64,000 bases of DNA, taken from the NCBI GenBank assembly GCA_902801525.1, contig CADCIN010000003.1, positions 20,096-84,095 on the forward strand, written 5' to 3'. The notes under the pieces were generated by a model. The model had not been told where the DNA came from, did not search any database, and worked only from the letters and a program-made list of their open reading frames with translations. Made by a program: the position numbers and the translations under genes. Below, piece after piece: positions 5,347 through 60,233 of the stretch; position 1 is the first letter of the stretch, and each line of letters begins with the position of its first letter. This stretch comes from an uncultured Erysipelotrichaceae bacterium. GTDB taxonomy: Bacteria > Bacillota_I > Bacilli_A > RF39 > UBA660.

Positions 5347-5421
5347 ATGTATATCCTCCTCTTATAAATGCACAAACATTATATCATGTTAAAGAAAATT
5401 AGTAAATTAATTATAAAAATA

Positions 5422-5449
5422 TTGACAAGAAAAAAAAAAATAATATAAT
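5422..5449 (+). promoter_or_regulatory. sigma-A-type promoter for ORF 5481-5825
   Basis: TTGACA (5422-5427), a 16-nt spacer, then TATAAT (5444-5449). An AGGAG RBS precedes the ATG at 5481. Confidence 0.5.
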
Positions 5450-5480
5450 AAATAAACATATTAAAAAAAGGAGATTTAAA

Positions 5481-5825
5481 ATGAGAGATGAACAATTAGT
5501 TGAATTACTAAAAAGTGAGCAAACAAAAGAAAAAATGAATAATTCATATTATGAATTAACAAAAGAAGAAAGAAATAAAATTAAAAAAATAATAATAAGA
5601 TTAAATGTAGAATATCCTGAAAGATTTCATGAAGATGCGTTTAATATTGTTTTAGAAAGATTAATAGAAAAAGTAATTGATGACAAAACATCACCAGAAA
5701 ATAAGTTAACTTATAAAAATTCTTTGCCAGACTTATTAAAAGAACTTGAATCATTTAGTGAAAAAGTTGATGATTATAATCCTGAATTCGATAGCTACGA
5801 TGATGGAAATCATATAAAATATTAA
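5481..5825 (+). CDS. hypothetical protein
   Basis: 114-aa ORF with a consensus promoter and RBS. I recognise no domain. Confidence 0.55.
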   Translation: MRDEQLVELLKSEQTKEKMNNSYYELTKEERNKIKKIIIRLNVEYPERFHEDAFNIVLERLIEKVIDDKTSPENKLTYKNSLPDLLKELESFSEKVDDYNPEFDSYDDGNHIKY

Positions 5826-16029: not shown

Positions 16030-16791
16030 CTATTTTTTTAATATATGTAATATATGTCTTCCTGCTCCAAGTAATTCGATTCTTTCACATACTGAGAAAT
16101 GATATTTTAAAAAAAGTGAAAATTCTTCATCATTTAATTTATTAAGATCACTTCTCATATATTCACATGGACCATCTTGATTAATAATTAACTGTTCCCT
16201 AAGTCCAGAATCATCTTTGAGTTTATATATATCCTCTATTCTAACAAAAGAATATAAGTCTGTATCTTTAGATACAATATTAAAGTTATCATCTATTAAT
16301 TTATTATTAACTGAATCTAAAATATTTCTTTCCATAAATCCATGTTTAATAATTGCAAAGTCATTCATACAATAACTAATAAATATTAACCCATCATTTT
16401 TAACTACTCTCTTAGCTTCCTTCAAAGCCTTTAACTTATTTTCATAACTTATTAAATGATACAAAGGTCCAAATAATAAAACAATATCAAAACTATTATC
16501 ATCAAATCTGGATAAATCAGTCGCATTACCTTGATAACACTCAATACCCTTTTCTTCTATATATCTTAAATTATGTTTAACAAGTTCAACTGCCACCACA
16601 TCATATTTATTATTAAAATATTCACTATAAACACCAGTACCCGCACCAACATCTAGTATTTTATCGCCATCTTTTAAATACTTTTCAATATATTTAATAG
16701 TAGTAAGAAATTCAACTTGTCCATGTCTTCTTTTAAGTCTTTTATCTTCATTAAATTTATTATAATATTCTATAAGATTATTCTCATTCAT
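16030..16791 (-). CDS. class I SAM-dependent methyltransferase
   Basis: ILDVGAGTGVYS motif I. I moved the start to MNENNLIEYY. Confidence 0.75.
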   Translation of the reverse strand: MNENNLIEYYNKFNEDKRLKRRHGQVEFLTTIKYIEKYLKDGDKILDVGAGTGVYSEYFNNKYDVVAVELVKHNLRYIEEKGIECYQGNATDLSRFDDNSFDIVLLFGPLYHLISYENKLKALKEAKRVVKNDGLIFISYCMNDFAIIKHGFMERNILDSVNNKLIDDNFNIVSKDTDLYSFVRIEDIYKLKDDSGLREQLIINQDGPCEYMRSDLNKLNDEEFSLFLKYHFSVCERIELLGAGRHILHILKK

Positions 16792-16792
16792 T

Positions 16793-17752
16793 TTATTTAT
16801 CACCTTTCTTTTTATCTTTCTCAGTATCATTAATAAAATATAAAGGTCTTTTTTTAATTTCTAAATAAAGTTTAGATAAATAAATACCTATAATTCCTAA
16901 AAAGAAAAGTTGAATACCACTTAAGAATATAATTATACATACAAGTGATGGCCATCCAGATACAGGATCTCCCCAAATAATAGTTTTTACTATAATAATA
17001 ATTATAAATATAAATGCAATTAAACAAAATAATAGTCCTATATATGCAGATAAAAGTAAAGGTTTAGTAGATGTAGAACTAATCGCATCTATTGAATAAG
17101 AAAATAGTTTTCTAAGATTAAATTTAGACTTACCTGCTGCTCTATCATCAGTATTAATTGCAATCCATTTAATGTTATATCCCATATAAGAATAAAGTCC
17201 CCTAGTATATCTATTAACTTCCTGCATAGAAAGTAATGAATCAATTACTTTTTTACTCATAAGTCTATAATCTCTAGTACCAGGCTTTTCTAAATTACCA
17301 GATAATGAAGAATTTATTTTATACCAAATTTTAGTTAATAAGTTTCTGAAAAAAGAATAATCTTTATGACTTAGTGAATAAATAGCAGCTGCATCAAATC
17401 CTTCTTCTGTAACTGCATTATACATATCATTTAATAATTCAGGAGGATCCTGTAAATCACAATCCATAATAGTCACAAAATTTCCTAAACTACTCTTAAG
17501 ACCAGCATATATCGCAGCTTCTTTTCCAAAATTACGTGAAAAAGAAATAAATCTAACTCTTTTATCTAAAGAATTTAATTTTTTTATAATATTTAAACTA
17601 TTATCAGTAGAACCATCATCTACAAAAATGAATTCGAAGTTAACAAATTTCATATCCTTAGAAATAATATTTATTTTATCGTAAAAAATATTAATAACTT
17701 CTTCTTCATTATAAGTTGGAATAACTACTGAAATTAAATCTTTCTTTTTCAT
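16793..17752 (-). CDS. family 2 glycosyltransferase (GtrB/bactoprenol-sugar transferase-like)
   Basis: ISVVIPTYNEE and DCDLQDPP motifs plus two C-terminal TM helices. Confidence 0.85.
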   Translation of the reverse strand: MKKKDLISVVIPTYNEEEVINIFYDKINIISKDMKFVNFEFIFVDDGSTDNSLNIIKKLNSLDKRVRFISFSRNFGKEAAIYAGLKSSLGNFVTIMDCDLQDPPELLNDMYNAVTEEGFDAAAIYSLSHKDYSFFRNLLTKIWYKINSSLSGNLEKPGTRDYRLMSKKVIDSLLSMQEVNRYTRGLYSYMGYNIKWIAINTDDRAAGKSKFNLRKLFSYSIDAISSTSTKPLLLSAYIGLLFCLIAFIFIIIIIVKTIIWGDPVSGWPSLVCIIIFLSGIQLFFLGIIGIYLSKLYLEIKKRPLYFINDTEKDKKKGDK

Positions 17753-17772
17753 ACATAAACCCTCTAACTATA

Positions 17773-18803
17773 TTATATTTTATCAAAAAAAATAAAATAA
17801 ATCCACAAAAAAACCATACTATAAATAGTATGGTTAAAATGATTCTCAAAATTAGTCATTTTATCAATATTACTTTCTGATTTATCAATTAAATTAGTTA
17901 ATTCTAAAAAAGAAGAAGGATTAAATGGTAAAAATGTAAGATTAACAGCTTGTTGCATTTCATCTTCATTATGATAAGCATTTTTTAAAAATATTTGATA
18001 TAACTCATCTTCACTCATCACAGAATCACCAAAATCGCCAAATCCAAAAACGAAATAAATACTTTGAAAATCAGGATTATTATAATGAATTTTTAACTTA
18101 CTTAAAATATCAGAATTTAAGAGTAATTTAATAAAACCAACTTTAGTTCTTCTACCAGTACTAAATCTTTCAGCTAAAATCTTATGATCAGTTAATTTAA
18201 CATTGTGTTTTTTACTATTATCGAGAAGCTTATGAACTTTACCAGAAAATTCTTTATCATTGTTATTTGTATGTTTAAGTATATTAAGAGTTTTTTTAGA
18301 CTTTCTAATAGAAGAATCAGCTTTACCAGAACTATAAGCATTTGAAATATTTAATAAACTATCAAAATCATCTAAAGTAATAACATAATTATATATTTTA
18401 GAGCCTAAATACCGATCATCTAAACTATCAGGATTATATTTTTCTTGAATATATATTTTTAATGTACTATTTAATTTTTTTAAATTAGATTCTATATCAT
18501 TAAATAAAGAATCATCAGAATATAAATGATATATTTCATCAATTGAAAATATCTCTTTACTAATTGAATCAATAAGATCACTAGTTTGTTTATTTAAAAT
18601 ATATAAAGAAAATTGAATTAAATCACTATCAGCATAAAAGAATTCTGAAAAATAATGAGCATTATCATCAAAACTAATACTAGGATCATAATAATCTTGA
18701 TATCTGATATGGTTATCTACAAAATCATATTTAGCAAGATTATCGTTTACTTCTTCAGATAAATTAATAATACTAAGTAATTGATATTTTTAAAAACATC
18801 CAT
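17773..18803 (-). pseudogene. hypothetical gene, apparently frameshifted near its 5' end
   Basis: My translation shows the frame of ORF 17773-18021 stays open upstream to 18790 with no start codon. An ATG at 18803 lies one frame off, across a T5A5 run (18787-18796). Confidence 0.4.
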
Positions 18804-18860
18804 TTGAATGATTTATAGAATCTTTTATACTAATTATTTTATTTAAAACTTCTAGTTTAT

Positions 18861-19244
18861 TCATATTCTTCTTTCCTTTTTATCTTCTTTAAATTTATTC
18901 TTGCTTTTTATTTTATTTAGAATAGTATTTGTCTTTCTGACATCTAAATCACTATCATAATATAAACAATCCAAAAGATATGATGCTTCAACCAAAGTAT
19001 CATAATCTTTAGAATGATTATATTGAGATAATAAATCAACTATATATAATAATCTATTAATTCTATCATCAGTAACATTTGTATTATCTGCTATTTTACA
19101 CTCATAACTTATATTAGAAATATCATTTAACTTTTCATTTCTTAATTCATTTACTAAATGTAAAATTACCTTTTTATCATAATTAGAAATATCTTTGTTT
19201 GTTAATAATTCATCTTTTATTAATTTAATATCTTCATTAGTCAT
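18861..19244 (-). CDS. hypothetical protein
   Basis: 127-aa ORF immediately downstream of fic. I recognise no domain. Confidence 0.5.
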   Translation of the reverse strand: MTNEDIKLIKDELLTNKDISNYDKKVILHLVNELRNEKLNDISNISYECKIADNTNVTDDRINRLLYIVDLLSQYNHSKDYDTLVEASYLLDCLYYDSDLDVRKTNTILNKIKSKNKFKEDKKERRI

Positions 19245-46820: not shown

Positions 46821-48216
46821 CTAGACTCCATGTTTTACTATTAGTAATTTTAACATCAACTATATCCCCTGGTTTAACTTCTACATCACTTGTAAAATTA
46901 ACAAGCTTATTAGTATCACTATAACCAAAATACATATTCTTTTTACTTGATATTCCTTCTACAAGTACAGGTAAAATCTTACCTTCTAATTTCTTATTAT
47001 TTTCTAAGAAATATTTATTAACTATCTCATTAAGTCTTTGAAGTCTTTCTTCCCTAACTTCTTGTTTTACATTATCTTTTAATTTACAAGCAGGAGTTCC
47101 TTCTCTTTCACTATAAATAAAAGTAAATGCATTATCATACTTACAGTGATTAACCACATCCAAAGTATCTAAGAAGTCCTCTTCCTCTTCTCCAGGAAAT
47201 CCAACAATGATATCAGTACTTACCATACAATTAGGTATTTTTTCTTTAATTTTATCAAATAATTCCAAATATTCTTCTTTAGTATAACGTCTACCCATTA
47301 ATTTAAGTACTTTATTAGACCCACTTTGTACAGGTAAATGAATACTAGGCATAATATTTGGATATTTTGCAATTACATCTATCATATGATCTGTAAAATC
47401 CCATGGATGTGAAGTCATAAATCTAACTCTTGGAATATTAGTTTTAGCAATATCTTCAAGTAATTCACCCATAAAATAATCATCATATAAATCTTTTCCA
47501 TATGCATTAACATTTTGTCCTAGAATAGTAACTTCTTTATAACCATCTCTAACAAGTTCATCTATCTCTTTTAATATATCTTCTTTTTTTCTACTTCTTT
47601 CTCTACCTCTTGTATAAGGCACAATACAATATGTACAAAATTTATTACATCCATAAATAATATTCACAAAAGCTTTATAACTATTAGCTCTTTTAACAGG
47701 TAGATTTTCAATTAAATCTCCCTCTCTAGAATATACTTCTATTTGTTGTTTATTCTCACTAATAGCTTTATCAAGTATATCAGGAAGTTGATATAAATTA
47801 TGAGTACCAAATACAAAATTAACCCATTTATAATTATTTAATATATCATTAACCACACCAACTTCTTGAGCCATACAACCACATAATCCAACTATTAAAT
47901 CAGGATTATATTCTTTTAAATGTTTAAGTCTACCAAGCATACCAAATGCTTTATTATGAGCATTTTCTCTAACAGAACATGTATTAAGTAAAACTAAATC
48001 AGCATTTTGATAATCATCGATTCTTTTAAACCCAAGTTTTTCAAGTAAAGCTGCAATATTCTCACTATCATGTTCATTCATTTGACAACCATAAGTTTTT
48101 AAATAAAAACTCTTACCTTCATACTTATTTAAAACATCATCATTAAGTTTAAAAGCAATAGTATTATAATCTCTTTTATCTCTTAATTTTTCTTCTAATA
48201 AATCAGGTAAATTCAT
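46801..48216 (-). CDS. miaB: tRNA-2-methylthio-N6-dimethylallyladenosine synthase
   Basis: UPF0004 domain (TYGCQMNEHDSE), the rSAM motif CNKFCTYC and a TRAM domain. Confidence 0.9.
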   Translation of the reverse strand: MNLPDLLEEKLRDKRDYNTIAFKLNDDVLNKYEGKSFYLKTYGCQMNEHDSENIAALLEKLGFKRIDDYQNADLVLLNTCSVRENAHNKAFGMLGRLKHLKEYNPDLIVGLCGCMAQEVGVVNDILNNYKWVNFVFGTHNLYQLPDILDKAISENKQQIEVYSREGDLIENLPVKRANSYKAFVNIIYGCNKFCTYCIVPYTRGRERSRKKEDILKEIDELVRDGYKEVTILGQNVNAYGKDLYDDYFMGELLEDIAKTNIPRVRFMTSHPWDFTDHMIDVIAKYPNIMPSIHLPVQSGSNKVLKLMGRRYTKEEYLELFDKIKEKIPNCMVSTDIIVGFPGEEEEDFLDTLDVVNHCKYDNAFTFIYSEREGTPACKLKDNVKQEVREERLQRLNEIVNKYFLENNKKLEGKILPVLVEGISSKKNMYFGYSDTNKLVNFTSDVEVKPGDIVDVKITNSKTWSLDGEASK

Positions 48217-48271
48217 AATATCACTTCCATTCGCTAAACATAATAATACTAAAAAAACAAATAAAAAGCAA

Positions 48272-48964
48272 CTAATTAGTTGCTTCCATCATTGAATTAT
48301 ACAAAATATTATTAAGTATTTTATTATTATCTTTCATAATAGCTTTTTCAATAATTTCTTTATTATAATCTAATTTTAAATAAACATTCTCCATATTAGG
48401 TAAAAGTTCTTTTTTACCTAAACTATTAAATATAATTTTCATATTATTAATCTTTGAATATTTACCATAATTAGAATTATTTATACATAAGTTAATTAAA
48501 TTCTTAAAAGATATCATATCGAACCTATCAAATCTTTTATCTTCAAAAAATTTAAGTGCTGCAACTGACTTATTTTTTAATGCCAAATCCATTGCAGTTT
48601 CATTTTTATTATTTTTAATATTAGGAATATAATTTTTTTTCTTTAAAAGTTTGATTATAATTTGTAAACCCTTTAAAGAACAATCGCTTGCAAGTATATG
48701 TCCAAATGTATTTCCATCTAAATTTTGATGATTGACTTTCCAATCTCTCTTAGTCATTAAATTAATAACTAAATCATATTGTCTATACTTAAGTAATTTC
48801 ATCATAACATCATTACCCATATTATCATATGTATTAATACTAACAACATTTTTTTTAATTAGTTCATAAACAATATCACTATATCCATCTTTAATAAGAG
48901 TAAAAATCAGGGATGGATCCTCCTCACACGATTTCATAGCTTGCGCTTTATCATAAAATATCAT
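48272..48964 (-). CDS. ankyrin-repeat protein
   Basis: Repeated xxGNTxLHxA-like units (DNMGNDVMMKLL, DGNTFGHILA, NETAMDLAL). Confidence 0.6.
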   Translation of the reverse strand: MIFYDKAQAMKSCEEDPSLIFTLIKDGYSDIVYELIKKNVVSINTYDNMGNDVMMKLLKYRQYDLVINLMTKRDWKVNHQNLDGNTFGHILASDCSLKGLQIIIKLLKKKNYIPNIKNNKNETAMDLALKNKSVAALKFFEDKRFDRFDMISFKNLINLCINNSNYGKYSKINNMKIIFNSLGKKELLPNMENVYLKLDYNKEIIEKAIMKDNNKILNNILYNSMMEATN

Positions 48965-49133
48965 ATAAACACCTCTTCAATCACATGACAGATATATATT
49001 TTATCAAAAAAAGTCAAATATGTCAAATTACCATCTCTCCTCTCTATAATTTCATAGTGATTTCATAATATAAATTTTATTCACAAAAATAAAAATTTAT
49101 AGTAAAATAAATTATGATATGTGAGGATAAAAA

Positions 49134-49979
49134 ATGAGTTTAGATGATGATCAAATAAATAAATTAATAGAAATAACTAAAGAAATAGAAAATATATATA
49201 ATAAAATTAAAAAAAAAAGAAATAATAATTATAATGATATTCAAAAGATAAAAGAATATATTTAAGAAGAAAACAGAATATATAAATTACTAAGTAAAGA
49301 AAAGACAAATAAATTATTAGTAAATATAGAAAATGATAAAAAAATAAATCAAAATATAAAAAATAGAATAAAAATAAATATAAATAATAATAATAAAAAT
49401 AATTATAAATTGAAAAATAACCCTTTTCAAAAAGAAACAGAAAACTATTACAAAATAATAAATATAATAAATAATGATATAAATAAAAACTTATATTTGC
49501 TAACAAAAAAAGAAATAGAAAATGAATCTAATATTAATATTAAAAATATGTTAAATAACTTTATCTATAATATTATTTTTTTAAACAAAGATATAGAAAA
49601 GAAACTATTGTATAATCAAGAAATAAAAGCAAATGGTCTAGAAATATTAGAACTATCAAATAATGAAAATAGTAAAATTAGAAGTATTTATTATACATAT
49701 ATTTATAAAGAAGTAAGTGAAACAATAAATAAGTTATTAAGTAATAATGATTATAAAGAATATAAAAATGATAAAGAAAAACTATTATATTTAGAAAGTT
49801 GTATAATAACTTTAAATGGGGATATAAGATCAAAACTAATAAAAGAAATAAAAGAAAGTATCTTACCTGATAAAGAATTAATTATGTATTTATCTAGTTA
49901 TAAAAGTCTAAATTATGAAAAAATAAATAAAATACTAGATAAATATAGTGATAAAGAAAAAATACTATCAAAACGATAG
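49134..49979 (+). pseudogene. K/N/I-rich hypothetical gene interrupted by one in-frame TAA
   Basis: GAGGA RBS plus ATG at 49134. TAA at 49263-49265. I checked codon by codon that the same frame then stays open through 49410 to 49979. Confidence 0.45.
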
Positions 49980-49984
49980 TATTT

Positions 49985-51979
49985 TTATAATACCTCATCA
50001 TCATTTGAAGTATTAATATTATTAGAAGAATACTCTTTAAATATAGTATCTAATTTTTCTTTAATTTGTTCTTTACTAAATGGTTTAGCAATATAATCTA
50101 CAAACCCTTCAGAAATATATTTTTCTTTTGCTCCTGCAACAGCATCAGCAGTTAATGCAATTACTGGAGTTCTAAAACCAGATATCTGTTTTAAATTATT
50201 TAATGCTGACTCCCCTGACATGACAGGCATCATAATATCCATTAATATAACATCATAGTTATTACCTGATTTAACCATATCTATAGCTTCTTTTCCATTT
50301 TCACATGTATCTATATCTAAATTAAGAGGCTCAAGAGCACGCATTGCAACTTTTATATTAAGCTTATTATCATCTACCAATAATAATCTTCTGCCAGAAT
50401 TATTAGTAGATAAGTTATTAACAAAATTAGTAGTATTAATATTATTATTGTTATTATTATTAATATTAGTTAAATTATTATTAGAATTATCATTTTCTAT
50501 AATTAAATCATCAGTTATTTTAGGAAGATTAGAAGTACCTTGATGAACAACAATTGTTTCAACGTTAGTACTACTTAATTTGCTTATTTTTTGAGGAATT
50601 TGAACCATAAACATAGAACCAATTCCAAATTGAGACTGAACATTTATTTTACCACCCATCATCTCAACTAAACTTTTAGTAATTGCAAGACCAAGTCCAG
50701 TACCTTCAACAGTAGTATTTCTTTCTATATCTAATCTTTCAAATTTAGTAAATAATTTTTTAATATTTTCTTCTGAAATACCTCTACCAGTATCTTGAAC
50801 ACAAATAATTAAATTACAAATATCATCTTGATTAATACACTTACAAGAAAGTTTAATCTCACCCTTTTCAGTATATTTAATTGCATTAGTTAATAAATTA
50901 TTAACTACTTCTTTCATTTTACCTTTATCACCAATTAATTCATCAGGAATATCTTCTGCAATTTCCATTTTAAAATCAATTGGTTTATCACCTATTCTTG
51001 TTGAATCTATATGAGCAAGACTAGATACCTCTGACTTAAAATCATAATTAGTATCAATAATTTCCATTTTATTAGTTTCAATTTTAGAAATATCTAAAAT
51101 ATTTCCAACTATTTCAAGTAAAGTATGAGAAGCTTCCATAATATATCCAGCATCTTCTACAATAATTGGATCTGCTTTATCTTTATTATCTTGAATATCC
51201 TCAGAAAAACCTACAATAGCATTAAGAGGTGTTCTTATTTCATGTGACATACTTGATAAAAAATCAGATTTAGCACGATTTGCTTTTTCAGCTTGAGTTT
51301 TAGCAAAAGTCATCTCATTAAGCATTTTCATGTCAGGATTTTCAATAGTAAAATACATCATACAACAAAGAAAAGTTTCAACACAATCAGAAATAACAAA
51401 CTCAGGATGTTTTATTTGAACAATCATTGAAATAAAGCCAAAAAACATATAGAAGAAAAGAGGCATAACTTTCTTAGTTTCAATCTTTGATTTTTTTATA
51501 AATAACATAAAAAATAAAATAGAAGATGTTACAGATGTAACTAAATAAGTAAAATTTACAGCCAATCCCTTCGAATAATAAATATTACTACCAACATCAA
51601 CAACAGAATTTATTGGTAAAAAAACAAGTATAATTATTTCAATAAAACATTTAATATAAGTAAAAAGATATATTTTCTTTTTATTTGAAATTAAAATTAA
51701 TAGAAAATAACACAATAAAGCATTAATAAATAAAATAAATAATACTAAAAATATTTTTAAAACAACAAAAATAAATATTTGATTAAACAAATAATTATAT
51801 TTTGATACAATATCACATGAAATATGTGAAAGCAATCCCATTAAATTAACAATTAATAAAAATTTATACACTTTATTTTCTTCATTATCTAACCTATCAG
51901 CAGAGAAATATAAATAGCACAAAGAAATCATATAAATGATACTAGCATAAACTAATAAAGAAATATTTTCAATAAACAT
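49985..51979 (-). CDS. hybrid sensor histidine kinase / response regulator
   Basis: Multi-TM sensor, H-box SHEIRTPLN, HATPase (GTGLGL), a poly-Asn linker and a REC domain (LLVDDN...LMDIMMP). I moved the start to MFIENISL, which follows GGGTGA. Confidence 0.85.
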   Translation of the reverse strand: MFIENISLLVYASIIYMISLCYLYFSADRLDNEENKVYKFLLIVNLMGLLSHISCDIVSKYNYLFNQIFIFVVLKIFLVLFILFINALLCYFLLILISNKKKIYLFTYIKCFIEIIILVFLPINSVVDVGSNIYYSKGLAVNFTYLVTSVTSSILFFMLFIKKSKIETKKVMPLFFYMFFGFISMIVQIKHPEFVISDCVETFLCCMMYFTIENPDMKMLNEMTFAKTQAEKANRAKSDFLSSMSHEIRTPLNAIVGFSEDIQDNKDKADPIIVEDAGYIMEASHTLLEIVGNILDISKIETNKMEIIDTNYDFKSEVSSLAHIDSTRIGDKPIDFKMEIAEDIPDELIGDKGKMKEVVNNLLTNAIKYTEKGEIKLSCKCINQDDICNLIICVQDTGRGISEENIKKLFTKFERLDIERNTTVEGTGLGLAITKSLVEMMGGKINVQSQFGIGSMFMVQIPQKISKLSSTNVETIVVHQGTSNLPKITDDLIIENDNSNNNLTNINNNNNNNINTTNFVNNLSTNNSGRRLLLVDDNKLNIKVAMRALEPLNLDIDTCENGKEAIDMVKSGNNYDVILMDIMMPVMSGESALNNLKQISGFRTPVIALTADAVAGAKEKYISEGFVDYIAKPFSKEQIKEKLDTIFKEYSSNNINTSNDDEVL

Positions 51980-52043
51980 CTTAATCACCCTATTATTATT
52001 ATAACACAATAAAAAAAATATCACAAAAAAGTGACATAAAAAA

Positions 52044-53903
52044 TTATTTATTATAAGTATTTTTTTTGTTGAAATCAAACGAAATAAATCCTTCAATTTC
52101 TTCTTTCATTAATTTAGTATCTCTTTTTCCAGATTTAGCATACGGAAATTCTTCTCTAATTTTAAATATTTTAGGCACATAGTCTGAATCATTAAACCTA
52201 TTCATTATACTATTTTGAATATGATTAAGTTTAATATCTAACAATTCTGGATTATCCTTAAGTTTATCAGAAAATTCATCTGTAAAAATCAAATGACAAA
52301 CCAATTTATCACCATTACCATTTGTCGATAAAACATCAGTATTTTTTATATCATCGTCAGACATAATTTGATTTTCAACATCAAAATTATAAATTTTATT
52401 ACTGTTAATAATAGTAAAATCACTTTTTCGACCTTGAACAAATAAATTTCCTTCATTATCAATATATCCAATATCACCTGTACAATTCCATTTAACGCCA
52501 AATTCATCAGTATAAAAATATTCATTTGAAGCTTCAGGATTATTATAATATTCAACCATACCAGATTTTGTATTAACTAAGATTTCTCCTCTTTTTCCAT
52601 AAGTAAGCTCATTTTTTTCATCATCAAATATTCCACAAATAACTCCTGGAATAGGAATACCTACAGATCCATCTGATCTATAAAAGTCATCAGTCTGAGT
52701 AGCAATACCAGCCCCACACTCACATTGCCCATATCCAATCTTTAACGCACTTTTTGTACCATGTTGTTTGAAAACGTCTTCTATACCTTCCTTAGTTTCT
52801 TTTTTTAAAGGTTCTCCGCCTTGAAAAGGATTAGTAAAATTAGATAAATCACCATTTTTAATTAAATTTTTATCTAAAAATCCTTCATACATACTTGTAG
52901 GTGCAACAGTAGCATTTATTTTATTTTTAACAATATTTTTTACAAAAACATCTCTGTCAAACCTTGGATCCATAAATACAATTGCACCATTTGCAAGAGG
53001 AAGATGTATAGAAGTACTAGATCCTGTTGAAAACCAAGGTGGAATAATTTGATAAAACTTTTGTCCACCATTCAAATTAATTCCACATGATTCATATGAA
53101 TGAATAGAATTTTGAAAACTATCATTTGATAAAACTATTGCTTTCGAAGCACCTGTAGAACCAGATGAATATACGAGTGCTAAAGGAGTATTAGGATTAT
53201 AATTAACCTCAGGAATATAATTAATATTTTTACCTTCTTTAACAAAATTTTTTAATGAATAAACTGAATCTTCATTAATTTCAGGTGAAGGTTTAAGAAA
53301 TCTCAAAATACTAGAATTTAGCGTAGGTAAAATAACTGTTTTCTTAATAGTTGAATCTTTTATAGCAGGCTTAATAATATCATAGAAAGAATCCATAACC
53401 AACAATAGTTCTGAATTACAATTTTTAATTCTATCTCTCATTTGATCTTTATCAAAAAATGGAGACATAAAATTAGCAACAGCCCCTATTTTTGCTAAAG
53501 CATAAAAAGAATAAATAACTTCAGGTATACCTGCACAACAAATTGTAACAAAATCGCCCTCTTTTACATTATTTGCTAGAAAAGATTTTGCATATTCATC
53601 AATTTTGTTAAATAATTTTTTATATTTGATTTTTGCACCAAAAAATTCAATAGCAACATTGTTTAAATTGTTTTTATTATTATCTCTAATTTCTTGATAA
53701 ACAGTTTTTTTCTCTCTAATTCTATTTTGACTTTCTAAGTCAACATATTTTAACCATGGTTTATCAATACTAGGATAACCAGTATGAGGTCCTTGAATAT
53801 TACCTAAAGCAAAATTTCTTAAATAAATATCCCTAAGTTTTTTTTCATTCATACTTAAACTAGATATTTTATTTTTATAACTTTTTAAATCATCATTTCT
53901 CAT
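52044..53903 (-). CDS. AMP-binding (acyl/aryl-CoA ligase family) enzyme
   Basis: YSSGSTGASKAI AMP-binding motif, GYGQCE and TGDIGYID motifs. Confidence 0.8.
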   Translation of the reverse strand: MRNDDLKSYKNKISSLSMNEKKLRDIYLRNFALGNIQGPHTGYPSIDKPWLKYVDLESQNRIREKKTVYQEIRDNNKNNLNNVAIEFFGAKIKYKKLFNKIDEYAKSFLANNVKEGDFVTICCAGIPEVIYSFYALAKIGAVANFMSPFFDKDQMRDRIKNCNSELLLVMDSFYDIIKPAIKDSTIKKTVILPTLNSSILRFLKPSPEINEDSVYSLKNFVKEGKNINYIPEVNYNPNTPLALVYSSGSTGASKAIVLSNDSFQNSIHSYESCGINLNGGQKFYQIIPPWFSTGSSTSIHLPLANGAIVFMDPRFDRDVFVKNIVKNKINATVAPTSMYEGFLDKNLIKNGDLSNFTNPFQGGEPLKKETKEGIEDVFKQHGTKSALKIGYGQCECGAGIATQTDDFYRSDGSVGIPIPGVICGIFDDEKNELTYGKRGEILVNTKSGMVEYYNNPEASNEYFYTDEFGVKWNCTGDIGYIDNEGNLFVQGRKSDFTIINSNKIYNFDVENQIMSDDDIKNTDVLSTNGNGDKLVCHLIFTDEFSDKLKDNPELLDIKLNHIQNSIMNRFNDSDYVPKIFKIREEFPYAKSGKRDTKLMKEEIEGFISFDFNKKNTYNK

Positions 53904-53993
53904 ATTAAATGCCTCACAATAAACTAATCTATATTTAGAATAACACAAATAACATAATAAATCAAAAAATAATTAAAAATTATTTATTTAAAT

Positions 53994-54023
53994 GTAAACA
54001 AAAAACTATCAATTAGATAGTTT
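53994..54023 (-). terminator. terminator closing the SipW/TasA-like operon
   Basis: AAACTATC-aatta-GATAGTTT stem followed, on the minus strand, by TTTTTGTTT. Confidence 0.5.
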
Positions 54024-54625
54024 TATAATATTTCAATATCATCATCTACTTTTTTACTCTTCTTTTTTCTAATAGGAGAAACTTTAAAACTCTTTGAATC
54101 TCCAACCATAACAATAGTAGTATTATCAATACTATCAAATAAATTAGAATACTTATTTTCTTGATTATTATATTCAAAAGCTAAATCTTGTAAAATAACT
54201 GAATTAGAATTATCATTAACCTTTAAAACATAAATATAAACTTCTTTATCATCAAACAAGATAAAATTACAACATTCATTTTCTAAATAGTAAGAAATAG
54301 GTTTTCTAACTTCCATTTGAGCATTAACTAAATCATTAAAACTATTTAAAACAATAGGAGTTCTATTACCCAAATTAATATGATTGTCACTCTTAACTAA
54401 TATAGAATCATAAGTATTTAATATTCGTTTAAGTTTTCTATTAAAAATACCTATATCAGAAGAATCTCTTCTTAAAAAAATAATAATAAATAATATAAAG
54501 AATAAAACTGCTAAACTATATAAAATAATTGAGTAAAATTTATATAGACTATTTAGTAAAAGTACTGCTAATAAAGTACAAAGAATCATAAAAAACAAAT
54601 ATATAAATTTTCTCATATTCTTCAC
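54023..54625 (-). CDS. membrane protein, last gene of the fibre operon
   Basis: Two N-terminal TM helices plus a ~140-aa soluble domain. Its start abuts the sipW stop. Confidence 0.5.
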   Translation of the reverse strand: MKNMRKFIYLFFMILCTLLAVLLLNSLYKFYSIILYSLAVLFFILFIIIFLRRDSSDIGIFNRKLKRILNTYDSILVKSDNHINLGNRTPIVLNSFNDLVNAQMEVRKPISYYLENECCNFILFDDKEVYIYVLKVNDNSNSVILQDLAFEYNNQENKYSNLFDSIDNTTIVMVGDSKSFKVSPIRKKKSKKVDDDIEIL

Positions 54626-55759
54626 CTAACCAATCATTTGATCTAATTTAATACTTGGAATAGCTACTGAAGGAATAATAAAAAGTACACGTCCTTCAAT
54701 ATCCTTTAATTCCAAATCTAAATTATCTCCGCTAATATTTGAATCCCCTTTAGTATGATAAATAATATGTCCATTTTTATTAGTAATAGACACTACTCTA
54801 TGTACTATAGAATTATTATCATCATCTTTAAATAATATTATATCATTAATTTTTAATTTTGAGGAGTTATTAATTCTAGAAATAAATGCACAGTCACCTA
54901 CTTTTATACTAGGTTCCATTGATTTAGAAGCAATTCCTACTAAATAAAAACTACCAATTCCACTAACTAAATAAATAAATAATATAGTAATAAAAATAAC
55001 AGGTAAATCTTTAATACTTATAATATTATTATTAAAATTATGTTCATTCCCGTAGTAATATAAATTCATATTTCGACTAATAATTTTATATATAATAAAT
55101 AGAATAAATATACTTAAAAATACTATTATATATCTAGAAACATTACTAATTAAAGGAATAAAAAATAAATAAGTATAAATAAACACTTTATAAGTAATTG
55201 GAACATAATATCCTAAATAAAAATTAGTATAAGTAAATACAATAGAAAAAATTAAAAGTGGTACAAAATTAAATGAAAAAGTAAGTAATAAATCTATAAA
55301 ATCTAAATTAGAACTAAACTTATTAAGTAATATAAATTCAAAAATACATAGTATAAAAGTAAATAATATATTTCTAACTATCCTATCTTTATTCGCACTT
55401 ATAAATAAATATCTAATAAATTCAATATTAAAAACAGATGTTAAAACTAATAAACCATTTAAATAAAAATTATTTGTTAACAAATTATTATTATGAACAA
55501 AACCATTTTTAAAACCACTTAAATATATAATAAGTATAAAAAAAAATGAAATTATCAAAGTAGTAATAACTACCCTTCTTTTAACAGGATTTAACTTATT
55601 ATTTCGATATCCAAAAAATATATAAGAAATGAATATCATAAAAATAGTAAAAGTAAAATCACTAATTATTTTATAAGATATATTTCTAAAAAAGAAAAAA
55701 GATAATAAAGTATATAAAAATAATAATAATATAATTAAATAACTTTTATATTTTCTCAT
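54626..55759 (-). CDS. SipW-type (S26B, ER/archaeal-type) signal peptidase I fused to a large polytopic N-terminal membrane domain
   Basis: C-terminal GIASKSMEPSIKVGD ... IVHRVV catalytic Ser/His motifs, preceded by about 270 aa with about 9-10 hydrophobic helices. Confidence 0.8.
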   Translation of the reverse strand: MRKYKSYLIILLLFLYTLLSFFFFRNISYKIISDFTFTIFMIFISYIFFGYRNNKLNPVKRRVVITTLIISFFFILIIYLSGFKNGFVHNNNLLTNNFYLNGLLVLTSVFNIEFIRYLFISANKDRIVRNILFTFILCIFEFILLNKFSSNLDFIDLLLTFSFNFVPLLIFSIVFTYTNFYLGYYVPITYKVFIYTYLFFIPLISNVSRYIIVFLSIFILFIIYKIISRNMNLYYYGNEHNFNNNIISIKDLPVIFITILFIYLVSGIGSFYLVGIASKSMEPSIKVGDCAFISRINNSSKLKINDIILFKDDDNNSIVHRVVSITNKNGHIIYHTKGDSNISGDNLDLELKDIEGRVLFIIPSVAIPSIKLDQMIG

Positions 55760-55879
55760 ATACTTCACCTCTTTATTATAATATTTTATCATTATAAAAG
55801 ATCAGTATAAATATTTAATAGATAAAAATAATTACTTGACACTTTATTTACAAAAAAAATATAGATTTTCATCTATATT

Positions 55880-57598
55880 TTAACTATTATAAACAATATA
55901 TGGATTATTTTGAGTTCCATCTCCACCACTTATTTTAACGTTTTTTGATAAGTTAACAACTGGTCTAGCATAATATTCATTGGTAATAATATTAGCACTA
56001 ATAATACCATTTGAAGTAACATTACCAGCTTTACCTATCATATCATTTGATTGATAAAAATAAGGTGACATAGTCCAGTAAGTACTACCAATATTTAAAT
56101 AAAAATTTGTATTAACACTTCCATTAATTCCACCAGCAAAACTAGTTTCATCAGCATTGATAGTAGCAACAGGATAAGTAAGTTTTCCATTTGAAACTGT
56201 ATATCTACTATTGCTGTTACATTTTAATGTACTAGTTATAGTAGAATTACTAGAATGCAGTCTTCTATAAGGGCCAAAAAATAAATCAGTAAATGTAGAA
56301 AAACTACTACTATCTTCAATATTTAAATCACTACAGAAAGTAGAATCAGTTAAATAATCAGAATATAAAACACCATTAGAGTCACTCTTACCAAGAATAT
56401 TACTTGAATACCAATTATCAATCTTAGTCTTTAAACTTGAAGAAGTACCAGTTTTAAATAATGAATCATAGTCTTTTGTTCCATAAGTAATACGACTTAT
56501 AATAGCAGATGAATTAGAAGAAGTTTTACCAATAACTTTTGCAATCCAATTACATGAATCACTGCTTTGATCTTGAAAACATACATAAGGATAACTAGCA
56601 ATTGCAGTATCTTTAACATCACTCCATTTACCAGTTATAACATCTCCAGATAAACTAAATAAACCAGTATTCTCATCAAACCTATAACTAGATCCAAAAT
56701 TATAAACCTGATTTTCATAAATTTTAGTAAAAGTAGAACTATCATCTTGCTTTTTAACTTCAAAATTAGGTTGATAATTATAACTTTCAAATATAGGATC
56801 ATAATTATAAGGATTAAATTTAGTACTACCAATTGTTACATTCTTACCAGTATCACTTGTACTAGTACCAGAATAAATTAATCTAACAGATCCGTCACCA
56901 TTTTCTCTGACTATTCTCCAAATAAATCCAGCATAAGATACATAGTTATTTAATACATTTCCTCTATAAAAATAGCTTGTTCCATCATCATCAGAAGTAC
57001 TATATAAACCAACTTGTGAATCCAAAGAATCAACAGTATTATATGAATATCTAGTAGCATTAGTAATTTTATAAGTAGTAGAGCCATCATCTTCATTAAT
57101 GATTTTATAAGAATTAACTTTATAAATATTAGCACATGTCTTATAACTACCAGTAGTACCACCACAAGTATAATAGCCAATATAATTATCATTTAACGGT
57201 TTATTTGTATAATTAACTAAAGTATACATACCAGAAACTTCATCAAATGTATAACTTTGTCCCAAAGTAAAATGTGCTTTAGTAATTAACGTAGCAACAT
57301 CTTTTTCAGTAACACTATTAGTAATAATTTTATATTTCAAAGTAGGAGCTGAATGATTAACATCAGCACTATCTTTATTACTGATATAACTTTTTGCACT
57401 ACTAACACTATCAGAAAAATTTTCCATAACAAGCATACAATCACTTAATTTAGTAAAACCATTATTAATACAGTAATTATTTTCTGGAACAGTAATAGAT
57501 GAAGATTTAGTATCTTTAATTTGAAATCTAGAATAAACATACCCTGTAGAAGATATTACTAAAATAAAAGTAATTATAAATATAATTTTCTTTTTCAT
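55880..57598 (-). CDS. large secreted protein with SipW-cognate-like signal (candidate fibre tip/adhesin)
   Basis: AGGGGGA RBS. Signal-anchor MKKKIIFIITFILVISSTGYVYSRF. C-terminal ...YYARPVVNLSKNVKISGGDGTQNNPY. Confidence 0.6.
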   Translation of the reverse strand: MKKKIIFIITFILVISSTGYVYSRFQIKDTKSSSITVPENNYCINNGFTKLSDCMLVMENFSDSVSSAKSYISNKDSADVNHSAPTLKYKIITNSVTEKDVATLITKAHFTLGQSYTFDEVSGMYTLVNYTNKPLNDNYIGYYTCGGTTGSYKTCANIYKVNSYKIINEDDGSTTYKITNATRYSYNTVDSLDSQVGLYSTSDDDGTSYFYRGNVLNNYVSYAGFIWRIVRENGDGSVRLIYSGTSTSDTGKNVTIGSTKFNPYNYDPIFESYNYQPNFEVKKQDDSSTFTKIYENQVYNFGSSYRFDENTGLFSLSGDVITGKWSDVKDTAIASYPYVCFQDQSSDSCNWIAKVIGKTSSNSSAIISRITYGTKDYDSLFKTGTSSSLKTKIDNWYSSNILGKSDSNGVLYSDYLTDSTFCSDLNIEDSSSFSTFTDLFFGPYRRLHSSNSTITSTLKCNSNSRYTVSNGKLTYPVATINADETSFAGGINGSVNTNFYLNIGSTYWTMSPYFYQSNDMIGKAGNVTSNGIISANIITNEYYARPVVNLSKNVKISGGDGTQNNPYIVYNS

Positions 57599-57608
57599 AT
57601 ATATCCCC

Positions 57609-58124
57609 CTAACTATTTTCTTTTTGAACTGCATCTAAATCAACATTAAAGTCAACTTTTTCTTTTAATCCACTAGTATTCTTAACAAAAACTTTAAACT
57701 GTGTTTCATATTTCTTATCATGTTTAAAAGAATAAACAGGTGTAGTTAATGATGAAACATACTCATCACTAGAACTGCTCTTATTACCATCACTATCTAT
57801 ATAATAATAAACTCCATTAGATCCATTCTTATTAGAAATAGTAAGCTTATAATCAACATCCACTCCACTAATAATATCACCATCATAATTAGTCACAGTT
57901 ACTAAAAAATAAGCTTTATTATTTTCTATATAACTAGATTTACTATCTATATTTATTAAACATTTCATATTTCCAGATACTGAATTGATATTAATATTTT
58001 TATTAGAAACATATCTAGAAAAAGATACTCTAATAAAAAATGCAGTAATTAATACTATAAATAATGATGATATTTTAACAATATTTCTTTTATTATTAAA
58101 TATTTTAATATTTCTTCCTTTCAT
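57609..58124 (-). CDS. secreted protein with SipW-cognate-like signal (minor fibre subunit candidate)
   Basis: TM segment followed by VSFSRYVS, in about 170 aa. Confidence 0.5.
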   Translation of the reverse strand: MKGRNIKIFNNKRNIVKISSLFIVLITAFFIRVSFSRYVSNKNININSVSGNMKCLINIDSKSSYIENNKAYFLVTVTNYDGDIISGVDVDYKLTISNKNGSNGVYYYIDSDGNKSSSSDEYVSSLTTPVYSFKHDKKYETQFKVFVKNTSGLKEKVDFNVDLDAVQKENS

Positions 58125-58129
58125 AGATA

Positions 58130-58678
58130 TCACCCACTAACCTTTTGTTTAGCATCAATAATAAAGTTAGCATTTAAATCAGCATCAGACCAGATACCAG
58201 TTTCATCTTCAGTAGTATAAGTCCATTTCCAATAAATATTTTTATTAAGTATTTGCTCACCATCATAATTAATCTCGCCATCAAAACCATCAAACAAAGT
58301 AGTATAAGACGAATCAGTATAAAATTTTAAATTACTAGGTAAATTACTATTATTTAACTTAATTGAATAAACAATAGATACTTTAGAACCATTACAATCA
58401 ATATTAATAGGAATAACTCCATAACTACCAGGTACAACTTTATTAGTATTATATAAATTATTCTTATCAAGAGTATCATCTAAAGAAATAGTTAAATTAC
58501 TGTTATCTGAGCCATTTACTTTAAAATTCCAAGTAGCAACTTTAACATTATAATTACTATCAGACCTATTTAAATATCTTGCATTAGTAGTAACAATAGA
58601 AGTCGTAACAAGTAATATAAAAGTTAATAAAAACAAAGATGTAATAAATAAATTTATTAATTTAGTATTTTTAATCAT
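58130..58678 (-). CDS. TasA/camelysin-like secreted protein
   Basis: The signal ends in ...TTNARY. KVATWNFKVNGSD and VVPGSYGVIPINIDCNGSKVSIVYSI are paralogous to ORF 59587-60162. Confidence 0.55.
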   Translation of the reverse strand: MIKNTKLINLFITSLFLLTFILLVTTSIVTTNARYLNRSDSNYNVKVATWNFKVNGSDNSNLTISLDDTLDKNNLYNTNKVVPGSYGVIPINIDCNGSKVSIVYSIKLNNSNLPSNLKFYTDSSYTTLFDGFDGEINYDGEQILNKNIYWKWTYTTEDETGIWSDADLNANFIIDAKQKVSG

Positions 58679-58701
58679 AATTACCAGACTCCTTCCTATT
58701 A

Positions 58702-59505
58702 TTAATTACTTTCTGCATTTATTAATACATTTAATGTATAACTAGAATCAGCTGCTCCTATTTCAGAATCATTATTCCCATCAAACCATTTCCAATCAAG
58801 GATATATTTATCTTTTTCTTTGCTATTTAAATTAGTAATTTGAATATTTAACATATCATAACTAACCCAATTACTAGAACTACCAACTAAATATTTATCA
58901 TTTTTCTTTAATCTATATTTCATATTAATCATATGTTCATTAATTTCATTAAAAGTTAATTTATAATTAATTGAATACTTAGTTTTATTATTAATATAGA
59001 AAACATATGAATTGCTAGATAATGGAGCAATAACTTCATCATTATCATATAAAGGATTCTCAAATATTCTTAATCTATTAGTTGATTGCCAAATCAAATT
59101 TTTATCGCTAACTTCTAAATTTCCATATACATATTTATCATTTGTAGTAGTATCTGTAGGATTATTAATACCTGTAGAATTATCAGTATTATTATTATTA
59201 TTAGTTTGATTAAGTCTCATTAATACTAGTCACAACAATATCATTATTACTATTACAATCACTACATTTTCCACCTGATACTATATTAAAAATATCATAT
59301 TTCTTATTTTTTTATTATCTAAATTATCAGTATTGGGAATATTACCTATTAATCCACAAAAACCATATTCTTTATTAATAATAATAAATTTAAATAAAAG
59401 TAATAATAAAAGTATAATAATAACAATAAGTATTCTAATATATCTTTTATGTTTCTTTAGCAATTCTTTATCTTTAGAAATTATTTCTAAACTATTATCA
59501 TCCAT
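58702..59505 (-). pseudogene. TasA-like subunit gene apparently split by two compensating frameshifts
   Basis: ORF 59281-59505 has AGGAGGGA plus a TM anchor. ORF 58702-59220 has the beta-rich domain but neither RBS nor signal. The two are in the same frame, and a 33-codon open bridge lies in another frame starting at a T7 run (59307-59313). Confidence 0.45.
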
Positions 59506-59586
59506 AGTATCCCTCCTATATTTTTATTCCCATCTAAATATATTAGATAAGTAATATACTTAGATGGAAGCAAAAACTTCCAAATA

Positions 59587-60162
59587 TTAATTAACTGATT
59601 GAGTTGCAGTAACTGTAACTGGAATAGAAATATCATTAGCATCAGAACCAGTATTTGTATCTTCTATATTTGCACTATCAGTATTTTTATCTGTCCAAGT
59701 AATTGTTACATTAGCATTAACTTTAGTACCACTAGTAACTTCTGCAAGAGTTAATGTTCCAGTATAAACACCATCTACACCAGTTAATTCAGTACCATTA
59801 ATTTTAACACTTGTAACTTCTATATTACTATTATTAATTGCAGTAGAATCAATTTTAATTGAATAATCCATAGCAACTTTAGAACCAGTTGGATCAAGTT
59901 CAATATTAAAGTTTCCACTTCTACCAGGTGCAATATATCCATCTGCTATATTCTTATTACTAGACCAAGTAATATCATTTGTAGTAAATGTTTTATTCTT
60001 AACAATATCAGTACCATTAACACTTACCTTCCATGGAGCAACTTTAGCAGTTGAAGAATCATTAGAAGAACTAGAATATCTAGAATAAGTATAGAAAACA
60101 AAACTACAAGTAAATAAAACAAGTAAAATTGCTAAAACAGAAATACCACTTCTCTTTTTCAT
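59587..60162 (-). CDS. TasA/camelysin-like secreted protein (likely major fibre subunit)
   Basis: First gene of the operon with an AGGAGG RBS. Signal ...FVFYTYSRYSSS. IAPGRSGNFNIELDPTGSKVAMDYSI. A partial terminator lies downstream. Confidence 0.6.
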   Translation of the reverse strand: MKKRSGISVLAILLVLFTCSFVFYTYSRYSSSSNDSSTAKVAPWKVSVNGTDIVKNKTFTTNDITWSSNKNIADGYIAPGRSGNFNIELDPTGSKVAMDYSIKIDSTAINNSNIEVTSVKINGTELTGVDGVYTGTLTLAEVTSGTKVNANVTITWTDKNTDSANIEDTNTGSDANDISIPVTVTATQSVN

Positions 60163-60203
60163 ATAATTACCTCCTTAATGAAATACTATATATATTCTCT
60201 CTA

Positions 60204-60233
60204 ATTATAACACTTAATAAATAATATTCGTAA
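60204..60233 (-). promoter_or_regulatory. candidate promoter of the fibre operon
   Basis: On the minus strand: TTACGA, an 18-nt spacer, then TGtTATAAT (extended -10). Confidence 0.4.

Follow-up and report, generated by a model that had tools for sequence, protein, structure and literature searches.

A candidate TasA-superfamily surface fibre operon with a polytopic SipW-type peptidase in an uncultured Erysipelotrichaceae bacterium

Fibres of the TasA superfamily are known from archaea and, in outline, from Bacillota, where a single locus can encode a polytopic type I signal peptidase (SPase I), a DUF5305 protein, minor subunits and a tip protein. In the AbpX loci, described from Pyrodictium abyssi and from Thermoproteota, Bacillota and Chloroflexota, a SPase I with ten transmembrane helices is accompanied by a DUF5305 'accessory', minor subunits and tip proteins (bioRxiv 10.64898/2026.01.04.697558). 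In the haloarchaeal Tat-fimbriae (tafi, TafA-G), which assemble by strand donation, the corresponding pair is TafD and TafG, and mutants deleted for tafD neither process TafA nor form fibres (PMC11821415, PMC12337348). In Bacillus subtilis, the tapA-sipW-tasA operon encodes a dedicated peptidase of the endoplasmic reticulum (ER) type together with its substrates; TasA forms fibres by donor-strand exchange (8AUR), and its paralogue TapA acts by strand complementation. Here we analyze an operon on a 64-kb stretch of contig CADCIN010000003.1 (the window, 64,000 nucleotides) from an uncultured Erysipelotrichaceae bacterium. An original prediction, made from the sequence, had described this operon as a seven-gene fibre system with a major subunit, minor subunits and a large tip, dependent on a SipW-type peptidase and not on a sortase or prepilin peptidase.

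Our analysis indicates that the operon probably encodes a surface fibre of the TasA superfamily that requires neither sortase nor chaperone and comes closest to the AbpX/Tafi type; systems of this kind have been described only recently. This reading is supported by the fold of the subunits, by a profile link to AbpX, by the catalytic domain of the peptidase, and by the lack of LPXTG, sortase and prepilin motifs: no LPXTG-like motif was found in proteins A-E, no TLxTC ORF (open reading frame) in the window, and no prepilin N-terminal methylation motif (TIGR02532) in the window proteins. Thus the original prediction is partly supported, in that its core agrees with paralogy, fold, the AbpX link and the peptidase motifs, while the label of TasA proper does not hold and the remaining parts of the scheme are proposed below in conditional form. 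All of the listed genes lie on the minus strand where they had been placed; the operon comprises eight ORFs with short gaps or overlaps, and not seven genes, because one gene is split. Pfam and NCBIfam searches with all eight ORFs recognised only F and G, and existing annotations of these genes are 'hypothetical' or spurious names such as TamB.

A paralogous subunit family and its fold

Proteins A, B, C and D form one paralogous family. Gene A (59587-60162; 191 aa), the predicted major fibre subunit, and gene C (58130-58678; 182 aa), a minor subunit candidate, share the sequence blocks quoted in the original prediction, and hhalign aligns the two proteins at 99% (E = 5e-18). Compared with an A/C profile of 63 sequences, ORF B (58702-59220; 172 aa) scored 96.9% (E = 1.8e-10) and gene D (57609-58133; 174 aa) scored 94.8% (E = 5.4e-8); D, which had been predicted as a secreted protein of ~170 aa, is in addition a smaller paralogue of A and an adaptor candidate. 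The four proteins end in a common strand pattern (A ...VTVTATQ, B ...NVLINAE, C ...FIIDAKQ, D ...NVDLDAVQ), similar to the pattern x-x-x-A-x-Q of the C-terminal strand of B. subtilis TasA. The predicted mature A-family proteins are acidic, as AbpX subunits are, with isoelectric points (pI) of 4.0-4.4 (4.4 for window A). In all related cassettes (see below) C keeps its position between B or the peptidase and D, and D, which overlaps C by 4 nt in the window, directly precedes E. The A/C family is large: clustering at 50% identity leaves 3398 representatives at E<=1e-3 and 1618 at E<=1e-10. Some members form the N-terminal part of giant surface proteins with LRR_5, Big or DUF4832 domains.

In A, C, D and E, and likewise in the orthologues of these proteins from five other species, a hydrophobic helix is followed by the motif [Y/F/N]-[S/A]-[R/K]-[Y/F]. 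The motif reads Y-S|R-Y in A (residues 26-29, after a signal-anchor helix), N-A-R-Y in C, F-S-R-Y in D and Y-S|R-F in E; in the orthologue of E at the related locus L013, STAYFTTE occupies the place of VYSRFQIKD in window E. Because the motif is in register with AbpX GLTYA|QWSE (TYA|xY against TYA|QW in hhalign) and with TasA WA|AF, we infer that cleavage would occur after Ser/Ala and leave R-Y/F at the mature N-terminus. A cut at Y-S|R-Y would place Y or F at position 2 in all four proteins, matching the aromatic residue found at that position in TasA (WA|AF) and in AbpX, where the signal ends in L-T-Y-A|Q-W. The likeness to a SipW-cognate signal is a visual one, taken from alignments. The segment after the putative cut site is conserved (family consensus xYxSxAxG...AxWxIKVN), and this consensus appears compatible with donor-strand complementation.

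AlphaFold2 (AF2) modelling, which the original prediction had proposed as a check, gave for mature A (residues 28-191, 120 sequences) a beta-sandwich of about eight strands and two short helices, with a predicted local distance difference test score (pLDDT) of 94.2 and a predicted template-modelling score (pTM) of 0.84; an earlier AF2 model of full-length A from 19 sequences had a pLDDT of 70 and yielded uninformative Foldseek matches. When the model of mature A was compared with the PDB by Foldseek, the highest template-modelling (TM) scores all belonged to donor-strand fibres of the TasA superfamily: the Hyper2 tube (9bab, 0.48/0.52), the Pyrodictium cannula (CanA; 9h8b, 0.46/0.49, probability 1.0), the TasA fibre (8aur, 0.45, probability 0.98) and AbpA (7ueg, 0.43), with probabilities of 0.92-1.0 for these matches. 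Sortase-pilin domains, which rank high by E-value, reached TM scores of only ~0.3.

A second line of evidence comes from profile comparison. A super-profile that combined A/B/C/D with the related domains found at the N-terminus of E homologues aligned with the AbpX family in hhalign at 91.1% globally (E = 1.3e-7, 178 columns) and at 83% locally (E = 9e-6), and the alignment spans the signal, the strand and the whole domain. The two subunit families are distinct: a search for AbpX homologues retrieved only 5 close archaeal relatives, and the window family was not among them. The main weakness of the superfamily link is the lack of depth on the AbpX and TasA side of the comparison. We conclude with moderate confidence that the subunit family is a distant, separate branch of the TasA superfamily, closer to AbpX than to TasA. 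The subunits are not TasA-family proper, and the nearest described system is of the AbpX/Tafi type, not Bacillus tapA-sipW-tasA.

Several results weigh against this placement and against a fibre. The profile searches suggested in the original prediction were negative: Pfam Peptidase_M73 (PF12389) had no match at E<=1 for A-E and matched none of the 63 A/C-family members at E<=0.01, and TIGR04088 had no match for A-E (NCBIfam, E<=1), for the 63 family members or for eight homologues with SYAAF-type N-termini. PDB sequence searches with the A-family profiles A2 and A6, and with profile A4, gave nothing meaningful. Foldseek comparison of the A model with the PDB gave no E-value below 1e-3, and the beta-sandwiches of sortase pilins and carbohydrate-binding modules (CBMs), similar by E-value, were interleaved in the ranking. 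The A/C profile alone reached only 20% with the AbpX family and a non-significant 12% with a single AbpX sequence, and hhalign with a single TasA sequence was likewise insignificant (1.5-5.8%), in a sensible register. The acidic position 4 of AbpX is absent, Ser/Thr/Asn being found there in the A family, so that calcium-mediated strand docking is not indicated. Finally, the putative donor strand of window A, RYSSSSNDSST, is Ser-rich and not clearly amphipathic.

These results could mean that no polymer exists, and that the operon encodes monomeric secreted or surface beta-sandwich proteins and a lectin, all sharing a dedicated peptidase for a non-standard signal. Such proteins would be expected to match generic beta-sandwiches (CBMs, immunoglobulin-like pilin domains) with weak E-values and to lack a TasA hidden Markov model match, as observed. 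We nevertheless consider a set of monomers very unlikely: the top TM scores fall specifically on donor-strand fibres, the AbpX link covers signal, strand and domain together, the conservation of the post-cut region (xYxSxAxG) fits a functional N-terminal strand, and the four paralogues in fixed order, together with one protein of the anchor type and one of the head type, resemble the make-up of pilus operons.

A polytopic peptidase and a DUF5305 partner

The SipW-type peptidase of the original prediction corresponds to gene F (54626-55759; 377 aa, or 388 aa from an upstream ATG), and the assignment stands for its catalytic domain only. F passed the cut-offs of TIGR02228 (archaeal/ER-type SPase I; 76.3 bits, cut-off 51.85) and PF10502 (25.2 bits), and its last 120 residues align with SipW-type peptidases, with SxSMEP, HR and KGDxN (Ser/His/Asp) kept. 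In contrast, F did not pass the Bacillus SipW equivalog NF046067 (63.6 bits, cut-off 190), and it has no C-terminal anchor of the kind typical of SipW-type peptidases. The hydropathy profile upstream of the catalytic Ser has 8-9 segments, of which two could each accommodate two helices; this predicts ~9-10 transmembrane helices, ~8 more than in SipW. From its sequence, F is thus best described as a polytopic membrane domain fused to a C-terminal SipW-type catalytic domain, and not as a SipW orthologue.

Gene G (54023-54616; 197 aa), predicted as a 200-aa membrane protein, was further identified as a DUF5305 protein (PF17231; 34.1 bits, cut-off 29). The match is limited to positions 118-217 of the 217 positions of the profile, corresponding to the transmembrane and cytoplasmic half, and G is accordingly a truncated DUF5305 protein with two N-terminal transmembrane helices and a cytoplasmic domain. 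By analogy with TafG and with the literature on AbpX loci (PMC11821415; bioRxiv 10.64898/2026.01.04.697558), G is proposed to act as an accessory of the peptidase.

It is instructive to compare this gene content with the described systems. The window locus resembles the AbpX loci in its SPase I of about ten transmembrane helices, in the DUF5305 accessory beside the peptidase, and in having major and minor subunits and a predicted tip. It differs in that its DUF5305 protein lacks an extracellular beta-sandwich, that the window-type anchor is a subunit with an N-terminal transmembrane helix (B) and not an SLH or LPXTG protein, that the tip candidate has a DUF6273/C-type-lectin-like head, and that the canonical cassette of its relatives also, or instead, has a small SipW with two transmembrane helices. 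With tafi it shares major and minor pilins, a multi-transmembrane peptidase, a DUF5305 protein and a large adhesin-like protein; however, the host is bacterial, the signals are of the Sec type and not the Tat signals of Tafi subunits, and TafD has 4 transmembrane helices and an N-terminal peptidase domain, whereas F has ~9-10 and a C-terminal one. Relative to B. subtilis, four paralogues and a 572-aa head protein take the place of TasA and TapA.

Related cassettes and the broken anchor subunit

Comparison with related loci shows how the window locus departs from its relatives. The canonical cassette (L007, L009/L010, L044, L093, L094) has the order A-B-small SipW (155-171 aa)-C-D-E, with places for an integrase switch and a small peptidase before A and for a diversity-generating retroelement (DGR) after E. 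The order A-B-peptidase-C-D-E is conserved in at least seven other species; cassettes L011 and L012 are without B, and L007 additionally has F-G. In the window species, B is broken, the small SipW between B and C is missing, and F-G is kept. The window locus is a derived, reduced version in which F is the only peptidase.

The split gene noted in the original prediction proved to be that of a membrane-anchored subunit. The 74-aa ORF (59281-59505; transmembrane helix at residues 18-50) is the detached N-terminal part of B and aligns with the cytoplasmic tail and transmembrane helix of intact B proteins (206-289 aa; L007, L009, L044), while ORF B, which has no signal sequence here, aligns with their beta-domain. 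B is also intact in L094 (241 aa) and in L093 (270 aa; the closest other species, with A 63% identical). Unlike the other subunits, B has a long charged tail, a transmembrane helix, no cleavage motif, and a low-complexity linker before the beta-domain. In the window species, the two parts are separated by a TAG, an in-frame hydrophobic stretch, a TGA and strain-specific indels. The break is found in all six same-species metagenome contigs, and the 74-aa ORF is called in all same-species contigs, indicating that the break is real and fixed in this species and that the beta-domain ORF has no export signal. Readthrough, recoding and genetic code 4 were rejected as explanations, since long ORFs elsewhere point to code 11 and the TAG, the TGA and the frame change differ between strains. 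The break (58702-59280 in the window, with equivalents in L001-L006) lies in an Asn/Thr-rich (AAT-repeat) linker, where indels differ between strains of the species, and the second B ORF has 172 aa or 183-184 aa, depending on the strain. It may reflect simple decay or a slippage-prone switch.

The broken B and the absent small peptidase also count against a working fibre, in that the locus may be partly decayed. Taken to its limit, this would make the operon a decaying remnant in this species, with the anchor a pseudogene, the small SipW deleted, the DGR lost, and no functional fibre produced. Such decay would account for a B split that is fixed in all same-species contigs, for the lack of the 155-171-aa peptidase that every other cassette has between B and C, and for the drifted, AT-rich state of the segment of E that is equivalent to a DGR variable region. 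However, the layout is gene-for-gene identical on 22 metagenome contigs of the species from many samples, with A, C, D, E, F and G intact and of equal lengths; F keeps all catalytic residues; the ribosome-binding sites (RBSs), hairpin and terminator are intact; and L011/L012 provide a natural example of a cassette without B. A functionless remnant therefore seems highly improbable.

The expression signals of the operon were located largely as predicted. The promoter candidate (60204-60233), read from the sequence, has a weak -35 box (TTACGA, 60233-60228) and an extended -10 box (TGtTATAAT, 60212-60204) and sits between the terminator hairpin of serS (60271-60248) and the RBS of A. This RBS, AAGGAGG at 60176-60170, is strong, as had been stated, and lies 7 nt before the ATG. 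A terminator-like hairpin with a U-run (54000-54024; AAAACUAUC-UAAUU-GAUAGUUUU then UU; folding free energy dG -8.2, z-score -3.0) ends the operon after G. Consensus scans were of little use: a generic promoter scan found 64 sites against 69 expected, not above chance and uninformative because the DNA is AT-rich, and a terminator scan missed the hairpin after G, which is too AT-rich.

The 'partial terminator hairpins' that had been predicted after A correspond to an RNA hairpin (59520-59577; dG -24.4 kcal/mol, z -4.7) without a U-run; the hairpin is real, strong and conserved. Equivalent hairpins lie 3' of A in L007 (10595-10635), L009 (13310-13355 and 18045-18100) and L044, with dG of -21 to -24 and z of about -5 across four species and compensatory changes at 4 of 15 pairs. 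The hairpin is a candidate attenuator or 3'-end stabiliser and, by analogy with hairpins after major-pilin genes, would fit a surplus of transcript for A. A GGAAG..CUUCC mini-hairpin located upstream competes with it for one arm.

Further genes accompany the cassettes of relatives. A second small S26 peptidase gene lies upstream of A in L007 (9355-9900), L093 (54-596) and L044 (4582-5193), giving up to three signal peptidases in the single locus L007. In three relatives, L007, L009 and L094 (8591-9688), a tyrosine-recombinase gene immediately precedes the fibre operon. In two of them the gene lies between inverted repeats of 27-42 nt that have the core TTTCATAAAGTTT in common (L007: 7948-7974/9310-9336; L009: 11249-11290/12602-12643), an arrangement that looks like a candidate invertible on/off or promoter switch. 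L010 lacks the integrase-A-B-peptidase-C-D segment that is present in L009.

A prophage or mobile-element origin of the window locus was considered and rejected: composition is uniform, with ~24% GC throughout the window, the operon adjoins serS, which with its own terminator hairpin is the upstream neighbour, and there is no integrase, although relatives do carry the integrase switch. Directly downstream (49985-53948) are two genes, one for a 703-aa hybrid histidine kinase/response regulator that contains an Asn-rich linker, the other for a 634-aa AMP-binding enzyme; both are kept at that place only within this species. The most AT-rich stretch of the window (48000-50000; GC 18.6%) contains degenerate A-rich direct repeats at ~49137-49489.

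The head protein and the proposed fibre

Gene E (55880-57598; 572 aa) encodes the candidate for the tip and for ligand binding. In window E, only the signal helix, the cleavage motif and an N-terminal strand of ~17 residues precede a conserved Cys-rich module that starts with NNYC, and the C-terminus is DUF6273-like, with a weak match to DUF6273 in 8 of 29 E-family members. DUF6273 reportedly adopts a C-type-lectin-like fold and is targeted by DGRs (PMC10743442). Homologues of E number more than 1291. Its genomic matches, at least 595, come from metagenome-assembled genomes (MAGs) of uncultured gut Bacilli/'Tenericutes' such as CAG:451, CAG:822, CAG:956, UMGS592 and Hadza MAGs, and a single genome often has several copies.

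Most E homologues outside the cassettes carry an extra, whole N-terminal domain before the module, and this domain is of one of two kinds. The first is a SYAAF-type, TasA-like domain that matches the A/C profile at 96.3% (E = 1.8e-9). In one case, L069, it passes Peptidase_M73 (22.9 bits, cut-off 22.5); ten further E homologues had no match to this profile, and the Pfam bridge therefore rests on one protein. The second kind is a type IV prepilin domain (TIGR02532; KGFTLVELL), found in L030, L065, L070 and L073; at L070 (2223-13756), four tandem genes carry the E-type head on type IV prepilin N-termini. The occurrence of the module on both TasA-like and type IV prepilin domains identifies it as a 'payload' that has been repeatedly mounted on filament subunits, and suggests that TasA-like and type IV filament systems exchange the E-type head.

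In three relatives the head is diversified by a DGR. The C-terminal 110-129 nt of the E orthologue form the variable region (VR) in L007, L013 and L093, and mismatches between VR and template region (TR) fall at template adenines in 11 of 11 cases in L093, 13 of 13 in L013 and 19 of 19 (core) in L007, with Avd and a reverse transcriptase (RT) following. In L007, the VR (14429-14557) corresponds to two TRs (16398-16526 and 16771-16899), with Avd at 17499-17930 and RT at 17923-19029; the VR/TR pairs are 5379-5488 and 5823-5932 in L093, and 2499-2608 and 2767-2876 in L013. RT and Avd also lie 3' of E homologues in seven other loci (L018, L045, L046, L054, L065, L069, L092). The 64-kb window contains no RT, no Avd and no repeat of the 3' end of E.

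Taken as a fibre system, the operon would work as follows. A, C, D and E would be exported by Sec with an N-terminal signal-anchor helix, and the SipW-type domain of F, helped by G, would cut after the Ser/Ala of [T]-Y-[S/A]|[R/K]-[Y/F]. This would free an N-terminal strand whose second residue is aromatic, and the strand could then enter the beta-sandwich of a neighbouring subunit by donor-strand complementation, to give a polymer mostly of A. We assign A the role of putative major subunit because its gene comes first in the operon, with the strongest RBS and with the conserved hairpin behind it; C and D would be minor or adaptor subunits. Since E has a donor strand and no pilin domain, it could only cap an end with a free groove, and is thus predicted to sit at the distal end and display its C-type-lectin-like binding head. 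Conversely, B has a pilin domain and an uncleaved N-terminus of tail, transmembrane helix and linker, and could only accept a strand; with its membrane anchor and wall-spanning linker it would be the membrane-proximal anchor or terminator at the base. The window species, with a B gene interrupted between the anchor and the domain and with no small SipW, would depend on F alone for processing, and its fibre would probably not be anchored through B.

The lack of an evident anchor in this species raises the question of whether A polymerises into biofilm fibres of a released matrix scaffold, like Bacillus TasA, for which B, C and D would serve as nucleators or chaperones, like TapA, while E would be an independently secreted lectin that uses the same peptidase. 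TasA, AbpA and AbpX are indeed matrix or bundling fibres, TapA acts by strand complementation (PMC10151520), and the acidic pI is shared with AbpX. We regard a released scaffold as unlikely, given that relatives have an intact B, which is anchored in the membrane and has a long linker. In addition, E combines a cleavage motif and short strand with the absence of a pilin domain, and its homologues are fused to pilin domains, which argues for attachment to the fibre, and DGR diversification of its orthologues is typical of receptor-binding tips. The proposal of an attached, tip-bearing fibre also has parallels in chaperone-usher pili and in Bacteroides type V pili with DGR-diversified adhesins (bioRxiv 10.1101/2024.11.15.621889): the operon logic of major subunit, hairpin, minor or adaptor subunits, adhesin, and anchor or terminator is alike, and in sister loci the adhesin is DGR-hypermutated and the operon lies behind a putatively invertible recombinase element. 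In contrast to those pili, the window locus has no chaperone, usher or lipoprotein-type processing, the envelope is of the Gram-positive type, the subunit sequences are unrelated, and polarity is probably reversed, the tip protein donating a strand instead of accepting one.

In the literature, we found no paper on the subunit family, the membrane-anchored paralogue, the strand-only DUF6273 head, or its association with DGRs. On a more tentative level, the window locus may stand for a large class of Gram-positive pili, so far unannotated, in uncultured gut Bacilli, with at least 3,400 pilin clusters (50% identity), SipW-type cleavage and donor-strand exchange, a transmembrane-anchored pilin as root and a strand-only C-type-lectin cap, to which sister species add a DGR-hypermutated adhesin and an invertible-recombinase phase switch; we hold this wider proposal to be possible, and less secure than the fibre itself. 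If this is correct, a programmable adhesin would for the first time be known from a TasA-superfamily pilus, and the pilus would be a major organelle of colonisation in a gut lineage about which little is known.

Almost no surface biology has been characterised in this lineage of low-GC uncultured gut 'Bacilli/Tenericutes' MAGs. The window copy, naturally 'reduced' by its broken anchor, its single polytopic peptidase and the lack of a DGR, is useful for asking which parts of the system are essential. If the fibre reading is right, genome annotation would gain a simple signature: a transmembrane helix with T-Y-S/A|R-Y/F, a small beta-sandwich that has x-A-x-Q at its end, and an S26 peptidase encoded close by, whether or not DUF5305 is present. 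The range of TasA/AbpX-type fibres, which covers biofilm matrices and archaeal bundling pili, would then take in adhesive pili with a tip in gut commensals, and such fibres would be linked to DGR-driven adhesin diversification in Gram-positive bacteria.

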